This document shows positions 5,894 through 40,138 of a stretch of DNA of 64,000 nucleotides, one piece after another. Made by a program: the position numbers and the translations under genes. How positions within the stretch are numbered: the first letter of the stretch is position 1; every line of letters starts with the position of its first letter. This stretch comes from Escherichia phage phiLLS. The notes below the pieces were generated by a model. That model did not search any database. It worked only from the letters and a program-made list of their open reading frames with translations, and was not told the origin of the DNA. The stretch lies in sequence record NC_047822.1; one strand, written 5' to 3'.

Positions 5894-5981
5894 GGGCGTT
5901 TATTCCGTAAGTGGTAGCGGAGGGGATTGTAAATCCCTGGTCATTGCGACTCGAGTGGTTCGACTCCATTAACGCCCACCA
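5894..5981 (+). tRNA. tRNA-Tyr (anticodon GTA), long variable arm
   Basis: Acceptor GGGCGTT/AACGCCC, T-loop TTCGACT, anticodon loop TTGTAAA, 88 nt. Confidence 0.55.
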
Positions 5982-5988
5982 ATTTAAT

Positions 5989-6063
5989 GCACCTATCGTC
6001 TAGCGGTTAGGACACCACTCTTTCACAGTGGGAACACGAGTTCGACCCTCGTTGGGTGTGCCA
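5989..6063 (+). tRNA. tRNA-Glu (anticodon TTC)
   Basis: Acceptor GCACCTA/TGGGTGT, T-arm ACGAG-TTCGACC-CTCGT, anticodon loop CTTTCAC. Confidence 0.55.
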
Positions 6064-6241: not shown

Positions 6242-6514
6242 ATGCATACTGAAAACTTCTTTATTTACTGCGCGGATAAGTCGCTGAAACGTAGAATTAA
6301 CAAAGTCTATCATTATCGTGTTAGTCAACAGCCTTATGTATATGCTTTTGACGGTGATCACATTCCACTAGAACAATTATCTTGTGATTACATGATATTG
6401 AAGAACTTTGACGAGACAAAGATCTCAAGCGTTCATAATCGACAGAATCCATTAACGTGGAAATATAAGAAGAAAAAGAAAGGCATCAAATTCTTAAAAA
6501 ATGTAGTTGCTTAG
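6242..6514 (+). CDS. hypothetical protein (about 90 aa)
   Basis: Start set at ATG after RBS AAGGAG; follows tRNA-Phe directly. Confidence 0.4.
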   Translation: MHTENFFIYCADKSLKRRINKVYHYRVSQQPYVYAFDGDHIPLEQLSCDYMILKNFDETKISSVHNRQNPLTWKYKKKKKGIKFLKNVVA

Positions 6515-8980: not shown

Positions 8981-9148
8981 ATGAAAGTATTTCGATTAGT
9001 AGTAAGTGACAAACGTTTAGGTAATAATACCTCAAGATCCTTACTTGCACATTATGGAAAAGATGAAAAAGAAGTAATGGCGGAGTTTGGGATTAATCAT
9101 TCTTACTTAAAAGTCCATTCTATTAAAGAAGTATACAATGGTTACTAA
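8981..9148 (+). CDS. hypothetical protein (55 aa)
   Basis: Small ORF between tRNAs. Confidence 0.35.
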   Translation: MKVFRLVVSDKRLGNNTSRSLLAHYGKDEKEVMAEFGINHSYLKVHSIKEVYNGY

Positions 9149-9149
9149 T

Positions 9150-9228
9150 AGATCGCTAGCTCAATAGGTTTAGTAGCATCCGACTTTTAATCGGAAGGTT
9201 CTGGGTTCGAGTCCCAGGCGATCTACCA
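9150..9228 (+). tRNA. tRNA-Lys (anticodon TTT)
   Basis: Acceptor AGATCGC/GCGATCT, anticodon stem TCCGA/TCGGA with loop CTTTTAA, T-arm CTGGG-TTCGAGT-CCCAG. Confidence 0.55.
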
Positions 9229-9246
9229 ATTTCAAGAAAAACGCAG

Positions 9247-9296
9247 TTGCTTGATGCTTAATTTCTTGTTATAATATTTATATAAATTGATGCGAA
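9247..9296 (+). promoter_or_regulatory. T5-type early promoter with no ORF downstream
   Basis: TTGCTT 9247-9252, TATAAT 9270-9275, spacer 17; followed by about 300 nt non-coding before tRNA-Ala. Confidence 0.55.
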
Positions 9297-9608
9297 AATA
9301 GCTGCCTAGATACCAGGTGTATGACGTCTACACTAGCAGAGCTACCGAAAAAGAGATCCTCAGGATAAACGTCGTAGCAAAATTAGTCTGGTATCCATCA
9401 ATTTAGTTCACTAAGGTATTAGCTCGACCTAGGACTGGCTGCCAAAAAGCACGATCCCTACGATTCGGGAGAAGTTCTAGATTAGTCCACTAGATTCAGC
9501 GGCAACTGAATAGTGTATTGGGTTTGCGAGATGACGCAGTTCCTTCCGCTCGAAGCGAAGGTGCTGTAGTTACGCCGAGCTAATAGCCTTAGTAAACTAA
9601 AGAATTTG
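9297..9608 (+). ncRNA. candidate promoter-driven non-coding RNA or tRNA-operon leader (about 310 nt)
   Basis: No ORF with RBS and no canonical tRNA fold; lies between a strong promoter and tRNA-Ala. Confidence 0.3.
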
Positions 9609-9684
9609 GGGGAATGGGTCTGCATGGAGTGGACACCTCGCTTGCACCGAGGACATCAGAACGGTTCGATTCCGTTATTCTCCA
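9609..9684 (+). tRNA. tRNA-Ala (anticodon TGC)
   Basis: Acceptor GGGGAAT/ATTCTCC, anticodon stem CCTCG/CGAGG with loop CTTGCAC, T-arm AACGG-TTCGATT-CCGTT; CCA not encoded. Confidence 0.55.
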
Positions 9685-9692
9685 CAAAATAC

Positions 9693-9770
9693 GCGTGATT
9701 GATGGAATTGGCATACATACCGTCCTTAGAAGTCGGGTTTTGAGGGTTCGAATCCCTTGTCACGCACCAA
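9693..9770 (+). tRNA. tRNA with anticodon TAG (Leu codon reader) in a short-variable-arm scaffold
   Basis: Acceptor GCGTGAT/GTCACGC, T-arm GAGGG-TTCGAAT-CCCTT, anticodon loop CTTAGAA (4/5-bp stem). Confidence 0.45.
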
Positions 9771-9845
9771 ATTTGATGGTCAGAGTAAATTAAACCTACT
9801 ATCTCGGTTGAGCTGTTTTAATGGGTTCGAATCCCAGCGGGGCGT
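9771..9845 (+). ncRNA. tRNA-like element (canonical T-arm, no acceptor pairing found)
   Basis: TGGG-TTCGAAT-CCCA at 9822-9836 but no complementary 5' acceptor strand; possible pseudo-tRNA. Confidence 0.25.
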
Positions 9846-9881
9846 AACTGCCTGGTGTGATAGAGGCATCATCTTATTATT

Positions 9882-9972
9882 GGAAGAGCAAATCGAATTG
9901 GCGACGAAAACCGCTTGGAAAGTGGCTGACTGGTAAAACGGCTTGAGAGTTCAAATCTCTCCTCTTCCGCCA
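9882..9972 (+). tRNA. tRNA-Ser (anticodon GGA), long variable arm
   Basis: Acceptor GGAAGAG/CTCTTCC, T-arm GAGAG-TTCAAAT-CTCTC, anticodon loop TTGGAAA, 91 nt. Confidence 0.55.
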
Positions 9973-9984
9973 AACAATTTATAT

Positions 9985-10079
9985 GGTAGGTCAATCCAAC
10001 GGCTGGCGCTGGACTCCGACTTGAAATCGGTTGATCGTAGTGATACGGTGTAAGGGTTCGATCCCCTTACCTACCTCCA
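9985..10079 (+). tRNA. tRNA-Ser (anticodon TGA), long variable arm
   Basis: Acceptor GGTAGGT/ACCTACC, T-arm AAGGG-TTCGATC-CCCTT, anticodon loop CTTGAAA, 95 nt. Confidence 0.5.
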
Positions 10080-10084
10080 AATCT

Positions 10085-10215
10085 TGGAATATGCCGGAAT
10101 TGGTAGACGGGACTGCCGAATAGGTTTACTAGGAACATCCACTCCTAGAAATATACCTTAAAAGCGGTTGAGTTAAATGGTCTAACTCATGAAGGTTCAA
10201 ATCCTTCTATTCCTT
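10085..10215 (+). ncRNA. atypical tRNA-like region (about 130 nt)
   Basis: D-loop-like AATTGGTAGACG, good T-arm GAAGG-TTCAAAT-CCTTC at 10192-10208, but body too long; perfect 7-bp hairpin TGAGTTA/TAACTCA. Confidence 0.3.
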
Positions 10216-10444
10216 GATACATCAATGGCTCAAAGTGTAACGGTGCTATTTGATGCACTTGGAAAGACTTTCCCGACATGCGTTCGGGGGTAAGCTTCTG
10301 AGGCTAGAATAGAAGAGTTTCTGGGAGCCGCCACAATCGAAAATTCGTACTCGTCTTGAGCTGCGTGCAATAGGAGATAACTTGATTAGTATTCTAGAAC
10401 ATGCTAATTGAGGATGGTTTCGCTAACCCTGCGAGTTTTCAATT

Positions 10445-23580: not shown

Positions 23581-24160
23581 ATTCTGGTCAGACTTGCATC
23601 TAGACCACCCTGGAGCGTTACGTTTCCGTCCGTGGTTTAAGAACATGAAAGAGCACGATGAGTATATTCTAGATACTTTGTCTAAGCATATTGGTAAACG
23701 AACAAAACTTATTTTGCTAGGAGATATTGCAGTAGGTCGTGAAGGTCTAACCAAATTAAAGTCGGTTATCCACAATGTCCCTAATCAACTTATTATGGGT
23801 AATCATGATGCGGAACGTCAAGGACTGAGCATCAGGGATTTAGCGGAAGTTTATGACGATATCCAGGCTCTAGGTAAACAGACTGGAGGCGGCAAAAAGT
23901 TTTGGCTATCTCACTGCCCTTTGCACCCTAATGAACTTCGTGGCAAACTAAATATTCACGGACATGTACATACTACTTCTCTACGTGATCCACGTTATAT
24001 TAATGTCTCATTTGAAATGAGTAAAACTCCAATCCCACTGGAGGATATTGTATCTGGTAAGTTTACTAGCTATGATAGAGTAGTTAATTGTACTACCGGC
24101 GAAGTATTACAAATAGGGGAAGATGTAGCTGCCGTATTGCGTGGAGATATAAATGTCTAA
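23570..24160 (+). CDS. calcineurin-like metallophosphoesterase
   Basis: SDLHLD, GDIAVG, GNHD, GHVH motifs. Confidence 0.55.
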   Translation: MKVKFWSDLHLDHPGALRFRPWFKNMKEHDEYILDTLSKHIGKRTKLILLGDIAVGREGLTKLKSVIHNVPNQLIMGNHDAERQGLSIRDLAEVYDDIQALGKQTGGGKKFWLSHCPLHPNELRGKLNIHGHVHTTSLRDPRYINVSFEMSKTPIPLEDIVSGKFTSYDRVVNCTTGEVLQIGEDVAAVLRGDINV

Positions 24161-28562: not shown

Positions 28563-29122
28563 TGACCTTATATGCACAACAATCTATTCAAGTAGTACCG
28601 GATCATGAACTGAACACATGGGATTATAGCTTTAAAGATTTAACTGCTACTGTACAATTCAAATCTATGAAGCTAACATTTGCACACACTGACCTTAGAG
28701 CCTGTAAAGATCTTGAAGGTAAGCTCGAAGATGCTCGTAAGATTTTTGGCACGGCTCGCATCCCAGCTGATAACCTGATTAATGCACTGATCGATGCTGG
28801 GTACAAACTCGTGAAGACCGAGGTGAACCGCCCTAGTACTCCAGTGACTATTAGAGATCCGTGGCAGTCAGGGACAATCTCAATGCTGAATAACTCCGAT
28901 AAAAGATTAATGTCGGATATGCACAATGTTCCATGTGGTGGTGTGGTAAGTAGTACGCAGTCATATAAGTTTGGGGAAGATTATGGGCCTTCTATACAGT
29001 TGAAACATACTCAAGAAGCTCTTGAGTCTGACATGAAAAGCGTAGCACCTGCGGATGCTGGAGTTTTTAATAAGTCTGTTTATACTATTCCTATGAACAA
29101 TCCTGTAAGAGTGGAAGTCTAG
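28562..29122 (+). CDS. hypothetical protein (186 aa)
   Basis: Overlapped start. Confidence 0.5.
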   Translation: MTLYAQQSIQVVPDHELNTWDYSFKDLTATVQFKSMKLTFAHTDLRACKDLEGKLEDARKIFGTARIPADNLINALIDAGYKLVKTEVNRPSTPVTIRDPWQSGTISMLNNSDKRLMSDMHNVPCGGVVSSTQSYKFGEDYGPSIQLKHTQEALESDMKSVAPADAGVFNKSVYTIPMNNPVRVEV

Positions 29123-30143: not shown

Positions 30144-30576
30144 GATCCTGCATGTCTCGGTGCACAATACCTGTACCGAGACAGAAATACAAACTCTCGT
30201 TGACAGATAGCTAAATGTATGTTATCATAACTCTATGAGTTAATAGAATTAACCATTTAGAGTTGCCACACAGAAGGTGTGGTGGTTCAGTAATTTAAAA
30301 TTACTAACTTGTAGCGGAGGATACGGAGCGACAGGACAAGTTAATAAGTAATTTAATATAAATTGCTAGAAACATCACGAGACCTTCTGGCGGGGGCAAA
30401 GCTCTATATGAGAACCCTGGGGGATCTTATATTTAAAATAAAAGTAAAACTTTTGACCACATAATTTACATTCAAGATGATACACCTGTTGCCGCTCTTC
30501 TGTTAGGATGGCACAACACTTTCCTAGAAACTCCAGAGTTCTCACGAGATACCACTCTTTCTAGGAACATATACTA

Positions 30577-30614
30577 GGCGGTTAATACAGGGCGGTTATA
30601 GGGAGGGCGGTTAT
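30577..30614. repeat. three direct copies of GGCGGTTA
   Basis: Read directly at 30578, 30591 and 30606. Confidence 0.6.
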
Positions 30615-30656
30615 TTCTAGAAGACATTTTTTGAAAACACATTTCCAGAAATTACT

Positions 30657-31256
30657 GTCGGATTTGCACACTGATATTCTAGAAATTTATGGTAGGATTT
30701 GCACAAATGCCTAAGTTTTTAGGAACTCTTACTCTCCTGAAAATAGCAGCATTATTTCGGGCCGAAGGCCCATGATTGCCTGAGTTTTTAGAGCCACAGA
30801 AATTTTCACTTGTCAAGCTATTTTGCCCCATTTTGCTAATAAAATTTCGCTTTTTCTGCACCTATCTCAAATTAACCCAAGTTATCTCACATCTCCTCCA
30901 AAATCCCCGCGGATCAGGTGCTCCGCACCAAACATGCGCTACATCCTTCTAGCCCCCAAATTTCTCTCACTCTCTCATCTTCTCCTCAAACCCACACAAT
31001 CACACACCCTCCAATCGAAGTCACAAAAATCTTGTCGGATTCGCACATCTTAATCCTAGAAAAACCGTGTCGGATTTGCACATACTCCACAGGATTGATG
31101 CGCAGCATCGGATTGCTGGAGTTTTTGGAAAAATTCATTGTCGGATTTGCACACTATAAAAATTTTTCGGGTCGGATTTGCACACTACCAAAAATTGTCG
31201 GATTTGCACATACGTGCCCGCACGTAACACCCGTGGAGCAATGTCGGATTTGCACA
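30657..31256. repeat. iteron array: 8 copies of 14-bp GTCGGATTTGCACA (two with 1 mismatch)
   Basis: Copies at 30657, 30692, 31034, 31069, 31140, 31171, 31197, 31243; non-coding. Confidence 0.8.
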
Positions 31257-31259
31257 AAA

Positions 31260-31281
31260 GCGCAGGGCAATTGCCCTGCGC
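31260..31281. repeat. perfect 22-bp palindrome GCGCAGGGCAATTGCCCTGCGC
   Basis: Read directly; sits between the two repeat families. Confidence 0.8.
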
Positions 31282-31284
31282 TAA

Positions 31285-31500
31285 ATACGAATGATAATAA
31301 GAATCATTCTCATTTAAAAAGCGGAATGAGAATGATAATAATTCGCATTTAGAAAGTGAAATGAGAATCAATCTCATTTAAGAAAGGGAATGAGAACTAT
31401 TCAAAAAGTGAAATGATTCTCATTTAGGAAAGGAAATGATTATCGGTTAGATAGTGGAATGCGAATGATAATGATTTGCATTTAAGAATGGAAGTGAGAA
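31285..31500. repeat. array of about 9 AATGAGAAT-type motifs, several as inverted pairs
   Basis: GGAATGAGAATGATAAT, GAAATGAGAATCAATCTCATTT, GGAATGAGAAC, GAAATGATTCTCATTT and others. Confidence 0.7.
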
Positions 31501-31520
31501 ACACTGTTATTTAAGTTATC

Positions 31521-31623
31521 CACAGACTTATCAACAGCACGATTTGACTTGACAGAATCCTAGCCATTTTGAAGCGTTATTAACAGACTTATCCACAGCT
31601 TATCCTACTGTATAAATATACAG
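31521..31623. repeat. left inverted repeat with DnaA-box-like TTATCCACA motifs
   Basis: ACAGACTTATCCACAGCTTATCCTACTGTATAAATATACAG (31583-31623) matches the RC of 34631-34671 with 1 mismatch; outer arms match imperfectly. Confidence 0.75.
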
Positions 31624-31744
31624 TATTCCTACGTAGTGAATAATTCTAATATACCGCTAAAACGTCCTGAATCGCATTCTAACGCGTTTAATTTTGGTGG
31701 GGATACTAAAACAAGGGGGTATTTAACTGGAGGCATGGAAAAAC

Positions 31745-32257: not shown

Positions 32258-32598
32258 TGCGCCACCTTTCGAAACGCTGTTTCAATACTATCCGCAGTGG
32301 ATTGAATATACGCGCCTTTCATTACTAGGCGCTCGGTGCATATCTTGCGGAAAATATTAATAAAATCATCTTCATTTTCTGCAATTAACGCTTCACCCAT
32401 AACCTGAACGTCACAAGATGCAAAGGTCAAAAATTGAAACGCTAGTTCACGGGCAACGACCGCATTAATCTTATAATGCGCTTTGCCCTCATAAATATTA
32501 ATAACGCCCTTATAAGCTGGTGAAAGCTGGTTTAAATAGTTTGCTAACAATGCCGGGCGGCAATTAGCAACAAAGCGGTTGCCTTCATAAATAACCAT
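32254..32598 (-). CDS. hypothetical protein (114 aa)
   Basis: Start set at MVIYEG (TAAaATG junction with upstream gene); ORF track extends to 32637. Confidence 0.45.
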   Translation of the reverse strand: MVIYEGNRFVANCRPALLANYLNQLSPAYKGVINIYEGKAHYKINAVVARELAFQFLTFASCDVQVMGEALIAENEDDFINIFRKICTERLVMKGAYIQSTADSIETAFRKVAQ

Positions 32599-34363: not shown

Positions 34364-34630
34364 TTTCTTGTCTCCCTCGTTAATCGGTGAGTAAATGATA
34401 AAGGTATTTTCTTTCTAGGGGCAAATATTATTTTACCTTTTTATTTTCCTTGCCTAGCGCCTAGTTTTATGCTAACCGCGCAGCGGTACAGTAAAGAGCA
34501 AAACACGGTGAAGCCGCTAGGGCGGCGCATTGAGGCTTTACTTTAATATTACCCCCACTGCATTTAGCTCGTTAGAAAGCGATTTAGGCCGCTTAAAATT
34601 GATTGCAGTTGTTAACACTACCTTTCTACC

Positions 34631-34740
34631 CTGTATATTTATACAGTAGGATAATCTGTGGATAAGTCTGTGTAAAAGTCCTTATATCGCCGCCTATCGT
34701 GTCAAATCATTTTGTGCTGTGGATAACGTTGGGGATAACT
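34631..34740. repeat. right inverted repeat (partner of 31521-31623) with DnaA-box-like motifs
   Basis: CTGTATATTTATACAGTAGGATAATCTGTGGATAAGTCTGT and downstream TGTGGATAAC. Confidence 0.75.
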
Positions 34741-35017: not shown

Positions 35018-35062
35018 GTAGTTATCCACTGGAAAATAAAAGTCAAGTGGATAACTAGGAAA
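35018..35062. promoter_or_regulatory. inverted pair of DnaA-box-like sites (TTATCCACT / AGTGGATAA)
   Basis: AGTTATCCACTGG and AAGTGGATAACTA about 30 bp apart; more GATAA motifs to 35190. Confidence 0.5.
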
Positions 35063-35501
35063 ATTTCATTTTTGCTTCTGGGGATAAGTTATCAACAAGG
35101 CTAGAATGCGCCTAAAACGCCCTACAACGCAGTAAAGTTTTTAGCCATCCCATCATAAGGGGATAAGCCGTTTATCGCTGCCACGAGCTTTTTAGATTTT
35201 GTCAAGTAGGGCAAGGCAAATATAAATGAAAAAATTACTTGCTTATCTGCTGGGTTTTATGGTATTCGCGCGCCCGTTTCTTTTAATTTTAGGCCGTCGC
35301 CGGACGCGGTGCGAGTATTTGCCTTCTTTACATTTCTTTACAAAAATAAGGTTGCGCCTTTTTCGTTGTTTGTTATTATTTATCTCGTAGGGCGGCAATG
35401 ACGAACTACACGGCGGGAAGTTTACCGCCGCGCTCTTTAAAAATTGGGTATATCTTAAAGTCTATCGGCGGTAAACTTATCAATTATAAGGAATCGACGA
35501 T

Positions 35502-39254: not shown

Positions 39255-39974
39255 ATGAAGATTACCCGTAATTTCCCGCATGTTTCCCGCGTCATGATTT
39301 GGGATCTGGATGGCACTATCGTTAACTCATTCCATCGCGTAGCGCCTTGCTTTGATAGTGAGGGCAATCTAGATCTAAATAAGTATAAAAATGAAGCGTG
39401 TAAACATGCTTTGATAATGCAAGATACACTGTTACCGCTTGTTACCTATATGCGCCAGTGCATGAATGACGCCAACACGTTAAACATTATTTGTACCGCT
39501 CGACTAATGAGCAAATCAGATTACTATTACCTACGGAAGCAAGGGCTGCGAGGGCGTGGGGGTAGCAATATCCGCGTATTTTCCCGCGATACACTGCACA
39601 AATATTTTGAAGCTGATAAGGTTAGCGAAATATACCACAGCAAAGACGCTATATATAAAAGCCACTATTTTGAGTTATTTAAGCAATTATATCCGAACGC
39701 TGATTTCACGATGATTGATGATCATAAAGGCGTGCTATCAGCGGCGGCATCATACGGATTTAAAACGCTGGACGCGCAAGCCGTTAACGATATTCTATCG
39801 ATTGGGGTTACATTGATAGGTGAAACCTTTATCGATGAATCTCTTGAGGATGATAATGATTATCAGTTCCTGGCCGACCGCCTGCAATTATGTTGGGAAG
39901 GTATGACCGAAGAAGAACGCGCAGAATATAGTTGCAGCCCGCAACAATATATTGAGAAATTAAAAGTTGCGTAA
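39255..39974 (+). CDS. HAD-family 5'-deoxyribonucleotidase (dmp-like)
   Basis: N-terminal WDLDGTIV HAD motif; 239 aa; RBS AACGGAGAACG. Confidence 0.6.
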   Translation: MKITRNFPHVSRVMIWDLDGTIVNSFHRVAPCFDSEGNLDLNKYKNEACKHALIMQDTLLPLVTYMRQCMNDANTLNIICTARLMSKSDYYYLRKQGLRGRGGSNIRVFSRDTLHKYFEADKVSEIYHSKDAIYKSHYFELFKQLYPNADFTMIDDHKGVLSAAASYGFKTLDAQAVNDILSIGVTLIGETFIDESLEDDNDYQFLADRLQLCWEGMTEEERAEYSCSPQQYIEKLKVA

Positions 39975-40040: not shown

Positions 40041-40138
40041 AATAGTAACGGGGGTGGCGGTTAGCAGACTAAGTATTTTCGCCGGAGGCAGTGAGCACAT
40101 CCTCATGTGTAATCTTATGAAATTTCGAGATTTCCAAA

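Follow-up and report, generated by a model that had tools for sequence, protein, structure and literature searches.

The DNA of bacteriophage T5 enters its host in two steps, and for this two-step transfer no mechanism has been available since its description in the 1960s. Transfer stops after about 8% of the genome, and does so only in cells; with FhuA liposomes ejection is complete, so the stop needs the cell. It is independent of the receptor, and the pre-early proteins A1 and A2 are required for resumption. Pauses of ejection in vitro coincide with the positions of the nicks in T5 DNA. The T5 repeat region is described in Davison 2020 (bioRxiv 10.1101/866236), citing Heusterspreute et al. 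1987 and Wang et al. 2005, and the label "injection stop signal" (iss) derives from where the stretch lies with respect to the blender-shear point and from its conservation. The subject of the present analysis is the corresponding stretch of Escherichia phage phiLLS (NC_047822.1), positions 30577-31500 of a 64-kb window (the whole stretch of DNA analysed). The element is annotated in the type phage, and published work already covers its repeats, nick and DnaA boxes and how it is conserved among T5-like phages. What is added here is a family of Fur boxes, recognised by sequence, and an operator-grade LexA box, which make an old open question testable. Provisionally, these sites appear not to have been reported in this region before; Davison 2020 (bioRxiv 10.1101/866236) mentions neither Fur nor LexA, and a literature search, which did not cover the 1987 and 2005 primary papers or the 2015 Davison review, returned no paper linking Fur boxes to T5. 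As a discovery the region is of modest interest, which the host-factor reading raises somewhat. To the best overall explanation, a composite whose parts are graded separately below, we would give a probability of roughly three in four.

A first-pass annotation of this DNA had offered, as its first candidate, the injection-stop signal of T5-like transfer, and comparison bears this out. At 88% identity, the region aligns collinearly with T5 9140-10409, in the T5 left terminal repeat; record AY543070 labels this counterpart "injection stop signal (iss)", and AY587007 names its repeats and palindromes singly. The stretch 30577-31500, continuing to about 31760, is thus almost certainly the T5-type "Repeat Region 3" or injection stop signal region. 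The DNA is that of a T5-like phage (Tequintavirus), and the region has matches in 454 phage records (at 96.9% identity in NBSal003) and in no plasmid record. The likeness to T5 Repeat Region 3 extends to position, to the order of repeats and palindromes, to the nick motif, the repeat boundary and the flanking genes. Homologues of ORF018 and ORF019 lie to the left, and small pre-early genes, A2, A1 and dmp to the right (the PHROG labels of A2 and A1 are "DNA binding protein" and "DNA transfer protein"), which agrees with the placement between early and pre-early genes proposed earlier; the two transcription units converge on the region and each ends in a terminator.

Pairwise alignment, a comparison with the T5 terminal repeat that the first-pass annotation had suggested, provides every annotated T5 repeat and palindrome with a counterpart in the window except the ninth copy of direct repeat D (DRD9). 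At the DRD9 position phiLLS instead has three GGCGGTTA(T) repeats (30571-30614), across which NBSal003 aligns and T5 does not; the start chosen in the first-pass annotation, 30577, falls inside these repeats, which its title omits. Two other differences from T5 are that palJ of phiLLS is perfect over 24 bp, placing the nick motif on both strands, and that the Fur-like array has one additional unit. The features are as follows, in window coordinates and with T5 names.

28912-28925, plus strand: outlying iteron GTCGGATATGCACA, within the ORF019-like early gene; homologue of T5 direct repeat D copy 10
30657-30705, plus strand: two iterons beyond the terminal repeat, DRD8 (30657-30670) and DRD7 (30692-30705)
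30759-30771, plus strand: hairpin GGGCC-GAA-GGCCC with a T run, directly before the repeat boundary; conserved in T5
30790-30791, no strand: boundary of the long terminal repeat and physical right genome end, within the conserved TTTTTA/GAGCCACAG (the slash marks the end)
30860-31030, plus strand: C-rich, G-poor tract (13 G in 171 nt), containing T5 direct repeats A2 and A3
31034-31256, plus strand: six iterons within the terminal repeat, DRD6 to DRD1, at 31034, 31069, 31140, 31171, 31197 and 31243
31259-31282, no strand: perfect palindrome (palJ), with A^GCGCAGG at 31260-31266 on the plus strand and the same motif in the second arm at 31275-31281 on the minus strand
31289-31487, no strand: Fur-box-like palindrome array (C1-C4/E, palE-palI), with long forms at 31290-31314, 31325-31349 and 31458-31482
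31359-31379, no strand: short form of the Fur-like unit; 31389-31448, half or degenerate units (both by T5 alignment and motif matches)
31516-31597, plus strand: two DnaA-box pairs, TTATCCACA/TTATCAACA and TTATTAACA/TTATCCACA, around a conserved spacer (IRC'-spacer-IRD', DRB)
31606-31625, no strand: LexA (SOS) box-like palindrome TACTGTATAAATATACAGTA (palD), by motif match and matrix score
31743-31762, minus strand: Rho-independent terminator of the pre-early operon (palC), by T5 alignment
34629-34740, minus strand: inverted second LexA-like box and DnaA pairs (Repeat Region 2, IRC-spacer-IRD), about 3 kb into the repeat

The repeats first described do lie within 30577-31500, but the block continues past 31500 with the DnaA pairs, the LexA-like palindrome and the terminator. 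A motif search across T5-like genomes, also suggested at the outset, found motif order and spacing kept in about 40 loci. A protein search with the ORF018 homologue gave 10 loci, and the diversity came from a DNA pattern scan and distant blastn; column conservation was computed over 18 aligned relatives. The order is fixed: LexA-like box, DnaA boxes, Fur-like array, GCGCAGG, six iterons, genome end and two to three more iterons. Counted from the LexA-like box, most loci have a DnaA box at -90, a further one stands at -17 or -29, and the Fur-like array occupies about -140 to -400. Conservation is higher in motif columns than in the intervening spacers, and the nucleoprotein assembly site supposed in the first-pass annotation fits this sequence content.

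Fur-, LexA- and DnaA-type boxes

The second motif family of the first-pass annotation, said there to be often arranged as inverted pairs, is AATGAGAAT, and it is both concentrated and paired as described. With at most one mismatch, 12 matches fall in the 183 bp of 31290-31472 against 36 in the other 63.8 kb, and they form palindromic units that recur at 23, 29 or 35 nt; in T5 this family is named direct repeat C/E, with palE to palI. The unit consensus is AAATGAGAAT-N-ATTCTCATTT, and a longer form, TGCGAATGATAATGATTCGCA, reads as two 7-1-7 repeats with a six-base overlap. This is how Baichoo and Helmann reportedly read the classical 19-bp Fur box in 2002, namely as overlapping 7-1-7 repeats. 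A matrix of 11 published Gram-negative iron boxes, whose leave-one-out scores range from 2.9 to 26.1, has its top match in the window at 31293, with 21.9 bits and 16 of 19 positions shared with the Fur consensus GATAATGATAATCATTATC (the Fur consensus is confirmed in PMC4506495). At 12 bits or more the matrix has 10 matches, five of them in the array and all 10 inside the terminal repeat; with up to three mismatches to the 7-1-7 sequence TGATAATnATTATCA there are 18 sites, six in the array. Mean column conservation is 0.80 for the Fur units and 0.64 for their spacers.

A reverse matrix was made of palindromic 21-mers from the arrays of 25 T5-like phages, picked without reference to Fur (consensus AAATGAGAATCATTCTCATTT), and was scanned against 98 kb of E. 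coli K-12 DNA in total. Its top six matches at 600-649 kb all lie in the fepD/entS, fepB/entC and fepA/fes intergenic regions, and its top match at 145-194 kb is a box 55 nt upstream of fhuA; these are Fur-regulated loci. The second-best match in the latter segment is AATTGAGAATCATTCTGAATT at 189,580, in the map/rpsB intergenic region. By their sequence, then, the AATGAGAAT palindromes are Fur boxes. They have the motif of the enterobacterial Fur operators (fhuA, fepA-fes, fepB-entC, fepD-entS and aerobactin iucA), as a comparison of GATAATGATAATCATTATC with the phage consensus AAATGAGAATCATTCTCATTT makes plain, and a 13-mer, AATGAGAATCATT, is common to the published iron box GATAATGAGAATCATTATT, which we take to be the aerobactin operator, to array units of related phages and to Certrevirus P7_Pc. 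The 13-mer is absent from the window, where the nearest unit is AATGAGAATCAATCTCATT. What sets the phage array apart from the Fur operators is that it packs five to seven candidate boxes into 200 bp, without a gene or strong promoter, in a virulent phage.

The second host-type site is the palindrome palD, which has the form CTGT-N8-ACAG with a TA-rich centre and agrees with TACTGTATATATATACAGTA at 19 of 20 positions. A LexA matrix of 18 E. coli SOS boxes (PMC3009722), with leave-one-out scores of 2.9 to 24.8 bits, gives it 26.7 bits, above every E. coli box so scored; the partner at 34629 reaches 22.5 bits, and the next best site in the window 17.9. Judged on these scores, palD is a LexA-type operator. 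Unlike E. coli SOS boxes it does not lie over a recognisable promoter, and it keeps a fixed distance to the DnaA boxes. Column conservation is 0.95 for the LexA-like box, which has at most two mismatches in enterobacterial relatives and three in the Vibrio phage.

The DnaA pairs, matched to TT(A/T)TNCACA, each contain one perfect box (31516 and 31589) and one variant that is off by a single base (31528 and 31577). They are the basis of the only molecular proposal so far, in which membrane DnaA captures the box pairs here and in Repeat Region 2, stopping transfer, whereupon A1 and A2 cleave to the right of this block and the remaining repeats have no more than a supporting part (Davison 2020, bioRxiv 10.1101/866236). 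Consistent with such a tether, the boxes are paired and stand at fixed positions in the great majority of relatives (one Klebsiella locus has variant boxes only), their column conservation is 0.92, and an inverted second copy lies 3 kb away. However, DnaA as the sole agent leaves without a role the Fur-like array, LexA-like box, nick motif and iterons, which are conserved to the same degree, as its author concedes, and for the first-step DNA to be cleaved and lost, as the model has it, there is no support. A tether by DnaA alone therefore seems unlikely. That the boxes are occupied by Fur, LexA and DnaA is probable.

The second LexA/DnaA copy lies between divergent pre-early promoters annotated in T5 (5938-6012 and 6411-6489), and more DnaA-like boxes cluster past it at 35022-35097. 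Fur-like sites are likewise spread over the terminal repeat: outside the array it holds four more loci of at least 12 bits where 0.3 would be expected, and the 54.7 kb outside the repeat hold none. A perfect 7-1-7 sequence, TGATAATGATTATCA, lies at 39851-39865 inside dmp, with about 240 bp between it and the left genome end, and is kept in T5 and NBSal003. Further Fur-like loci in the repeat are at 32361, 34204 and 39000. Both the promoters flanking the second copy and the enrichment of Fur-like boxes across the repeat would suit a role in transcriptional control or insulation, in which the Fur, LexA and DnaA sites are operators, or roadblocks that stop host RNA polymerase coming from the convergent units before it collides with, or tugs at, DNA held in the channel, or make nearby promoters responsive to the iron or SOS state; the position of the region between convergent, terminator-ended units fits as well. 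The array itself has only weak promoter-like matches (9/12), which arise from the Fur hexamers, and no gene lies downstream, so that this explanation is distinctly unlikely.

Iterons, nick motif and genome end

The repeat GTCGGATTTGCACA, at up to two mismatches, has nine matches in the window, all on the plus strand, where 0.42 would be expected; a count of nine was reached in none of 100 shuffles. Eight of them form the cluster at 30657-31256, six exact and one with a single mismatch each at 30692 and 31034, in keeping with the eight copies of a 14-bp motif at irregular spacing that had been noticed first. Their start-to-start distances are 35, 342, 35, 71, 31, 26 and 46 nt. These iterons are T5 direct repeat D copies 1-8, with copy 10 as the outlier at 28912; mean column conservation is 0.87 in the iterons and 0.72 in the intervening spacers. 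From DRD1 to DRD9 the distance is about 740 bp in T5 and varies from 600 to about 1250 bp among relatives, for which reason a tail-length ruler, with the T5 span approximating the DNA between cytoplasm and capsid at the pause as estimated from the 160-nm tail tube, was rejected.

The iteron contains a 9-mer one base off the DnaA consensus and co-oriented with the true boxes, and it was considered as a low-affinity DnaA box. This idea was set aside, as, of 195 copies, 124 have ATTTGCACA as the embedded 9-mer and only seven have a perfect box. The off-consensus A is conserved and the Vibrio iteron has no resemblance to a DnaA box, and the iteron is therefore treated as a motif of its own. In the Klebsiella, Pantoea and EPS7-type phages the iteron is unchanged. 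Vibrio phage ValDsh2 retains GCGCAG, the Fur-like, DnaA and LexA-like boxes and a 2 + 4 iteron layout, and its iterons read TAGAATCCGCACTCACA, unlike the enterobacterial ones. Since the host-type boxes stay constant while the iterons drift, host proteins would be expected to read the boxes and a phage protein the iterons; the pattern points to a phage-encoded reader of the iteron.

The absence of a credible open reading frame (ORF), asserted in the first-pass annotation, holds on inspection. The longest mechanical ORF (144 aa, 30918-31352) gave nothing above cut-off in a Pfam search and is intact only in the window and its closest relative, with stops or frameshifts in 16 of the 18 aligned relatives, and a coding region was accordingly rejected. 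An Rfam search of the region returned no family, its sole match having E = 0.97. The second candidate put forward at first, a replication or partition-type origin, fares worse. Iterons, DnaA boxes and AT-rich repeats do resemble plasmid origins, and iterons with clustered DnaA boxes are found in the iteron plasmid origins of P1 (oriR) and pSC101 and in oriC. In contrast to these, the region has no initiator gene; its neighbours are PHROGs of unknown function without a Pfam match, no rep, parA or parB is adjacent, and no plasmid has a similar sequence. T5 origins, moreover, lie near the middle of the genome, and the replication genes arrive only with the second-step DNA (Davison 2020, bioRxiv 10.1101/866236). 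An origin or partition site at this locus is scarcely credible.

Directly beyond the last iteron, GCGCAGGGCAATTGCCCTGCGC at 31260-31281 belongs to a palindrome that is perfect over 24 bp (31259-31282). The perfect palindrome of the first-pass annotation is therefore present, but it is 24 bp long and not 22; at 4^-12 per position, about 0.004 such palindromes would be expected in 64 kb. It overlaps the homologue of the T5 "major single-stranded nick 1, 7.9%". Common to the three annotated T5 major nicks is (A)GCGCAGGG on one strand. The plus strand of the window has just three GCGCAGG sites, 1974, 17974 and 31260, which are homologous to T5 nicks 3, 2 and 1 in that order; the sites at 1974 and 17974, which both read GAGAGCGCAGGG, correspond to nick 3 (32.6%) and nick 2 (18.3%). 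In all 18 aligned relatives GCGCAGG is invariant (column conservation 1.0), and in all loci compared it starts 17 nt past the start of DRD1. The palindrome itself is perfect in 7 of the 18, imperfect in T5, a stem-loop in EPS7-type phages and missing from the Klebsiella and Pantoea phages. The perfect palindrome was accordingly discarded as the functional unit, only GCGCAGG being invariant and the second arm being found in 7 of 18 relatives.

The same findings bear on the notion of a block by DNA structure, in which hairpins, cruciforms or the flexible joint of the nick would jam the DNA in tail or portal without any specific protein. Palindromes are dense in the region, and the coincidence of in vitro pauses with nicks is what such a block would lead one to expect. 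Yet ejection runs to completion in vitro, the palindrome comes and goes among relatives around an invariant GCGCAGG, and the conserved positions are those of protein consensus motifs and not of stem pairing. A purely structural block is very unlikely.

The physical genome end lies within the region. The end of the T5 left repeat and position 1 of the NBSal003 record both align at 30790/30791, and seven records (T5 and five relatives) terminate at the homologue of this boundary, within 2 nt. The terminal repeat runs from 30791 to about 40097, and the other boundary, 40097/40098, is homologous to T5 position 1. Past 40097 the window passes without a break into what on the T5 map is the right unique end, which implies that the assembly collapsed the two repeat copies into one. 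The iterons flank the genome end, two outside the repeat and six inside it, and between the end and the inner iterons the C-rich tract has 64 nt in a row without a G (30953-31016), more than anywhere else in the window. The equivalent tract of Klebsiella phages has many C runs, so that its opposite strand is rich in G runs. The two ends of the repeat resemble each other only weakly in a common cut motif (TCCACWG-like in T5).

Because they flank the genome end, the iterons probably also serve end recognition in packaging. A fuller version of this idea makes the iterons, perhaps with the host-factor boxes as architecture, the terminase recognition region that makes the genome end, the iterons of the left repeat then merely following from duplication of the repeat. 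The end inside the region at a conserved sequence where seven records stop is consistent with this, as are co-oriented iterons on either side of it (two to three outside and six inside in enterobacterial phages, 2 + 4 in the Vibrio phage) and an iteron sequence that varies by phage lineage, as it would if a phage protein, for instance a small terminase subunit, bound it. The T5 left end is ejected first according to the literature, so the right end, at the 30790/30791 boundary, should be packaged first. Terminase regions of other phages offer a parallel: the cosB R sites and IHF site of lambda, and pacL and pacR around pacC in SPP1, likewise combine co-oriented short repeats by an end site with host-factor sites among them. 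The phage region differs from these in its larger distances and its 9.3-kb direct terminal repeats. On the other side, the inner iterons begin 243 bp from the end, farther than cosB from cosN; no iterons (up to three mismatches) were found near the other boundary at 40097; the T5 polarity is inferred from "last in, first out"; and a literature search on T5 terminase recognition returned nothing. The packaging account is possible rather than probable, and it is compatible with a stop signal. With a genome end inside the region, packaging and ejection functions need separating before either is assigned to the iterons.

A proposed hold on the entering DNA

The elements of the region would enter the cell from right to left in the window: terminator, LexA-type operator, two DnaA pairs, five to seven Fur boxes, the nick-1 motif A^GCGCAGG, six iterons, the C-rich tract, the physical genome end and two more iterons. 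As the left repeat enters, LexA, DnaA and Fur could load on the last 330 bp or so to arrive, and a bulky nucleoprotein complex would then form just inside the entry channel, which DnaA may attach to the membrane along the lines of Davison's proposal. An intrinsic pause at the first nick would thereby be turned by the complex into a stable hold, and pre-early A1 and A2 would release it. This arrest-and-hold mechanism is tentative, and we give it the same weight as packaging; the transcriptional, structural and origin or partition readings rank below these two. The narrower claim is doubtful, namely that after its first 8% the DNA is held by joint occupancy of the Fur array, DnaA boxes and LexA box (or that such occupancy helps a packaging complex to assemble), neither DNA structure nor DnaA by itself being responsible. 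If this is true, how long the pause lasts would vary with the iron status of the host and with the SOS signal raised as A1 destroys the host chromosome, and cleavage of LexA would serve as the cue that degradation of host DNA had begun.

Several points weigh against a host-factor hold. The link of the motifs to the stop is one of position and conservation, and the T5 shear point, by closeness to which the iss was defined, is estimated at about 9.6 kb with no error stated. It is not obvious how proteins bound in the cytoplasm could arrest an ejection that capsid pressure drives. T5 mutants deficient in the interruptions are viable, which means that the nick as such is dispensable. The likeness to Fur boxes is weaker in some lineages, Klebsiella phage GZ8 having no Fur match of 12 bits or more. 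Relatives that use BtuB retain the array: the receptor of EPS7 is BtuB and not FhuA, from which it follows that the array does not follow the receptor and that any Fur effect would not be tied to it, and T5 grows in both iron-rich and iron-poor media. Finally, the same palindromes adjoin CCCTGCGC-like sequence in unrelated myoviruses, which could mean that a common phage-encoded protein, and not host Fur, is the binder.

In these myoviruses the palindromes form clusters of three to four in long intergenic DNA, in Phapecoctavirus tuntematon (MN850618, 1490-1600) and Certrevirus P7_Pc (ON712643, 1460-1580; coordinates of the scanned loci), and the tuntematon cluster adjoins CCCTGCGC-like sequence as the array does in the window. 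The clusters might conceivably be a module mobile between T5-like phages and myoviruses. Each is followed by a conserved GC-rich element, and P7_Pc has in addition two copies of a structured-looking, GC-rich segment of about 90 nt.

Two smaller observations concern the surroundings of the region. At 23761-23774, 7.5 kb from the iteron cluster, GTCGGTTATCCACA joins the 5' half of an iteron to a perfect DnaA box. Within 30200-30570, past the ORF018 terminator, lies a near-consensus, rightward sigma-70 promoter-like site (TTGACA-17-TATCAT with TG, 11/12), which leads into about 340 nt of ORF-free DNA. This DNA has no Rfam match and could encode a small RNA or a leader; the stretch is 95% identical to T5, exceeding the conservation of the iss itself.

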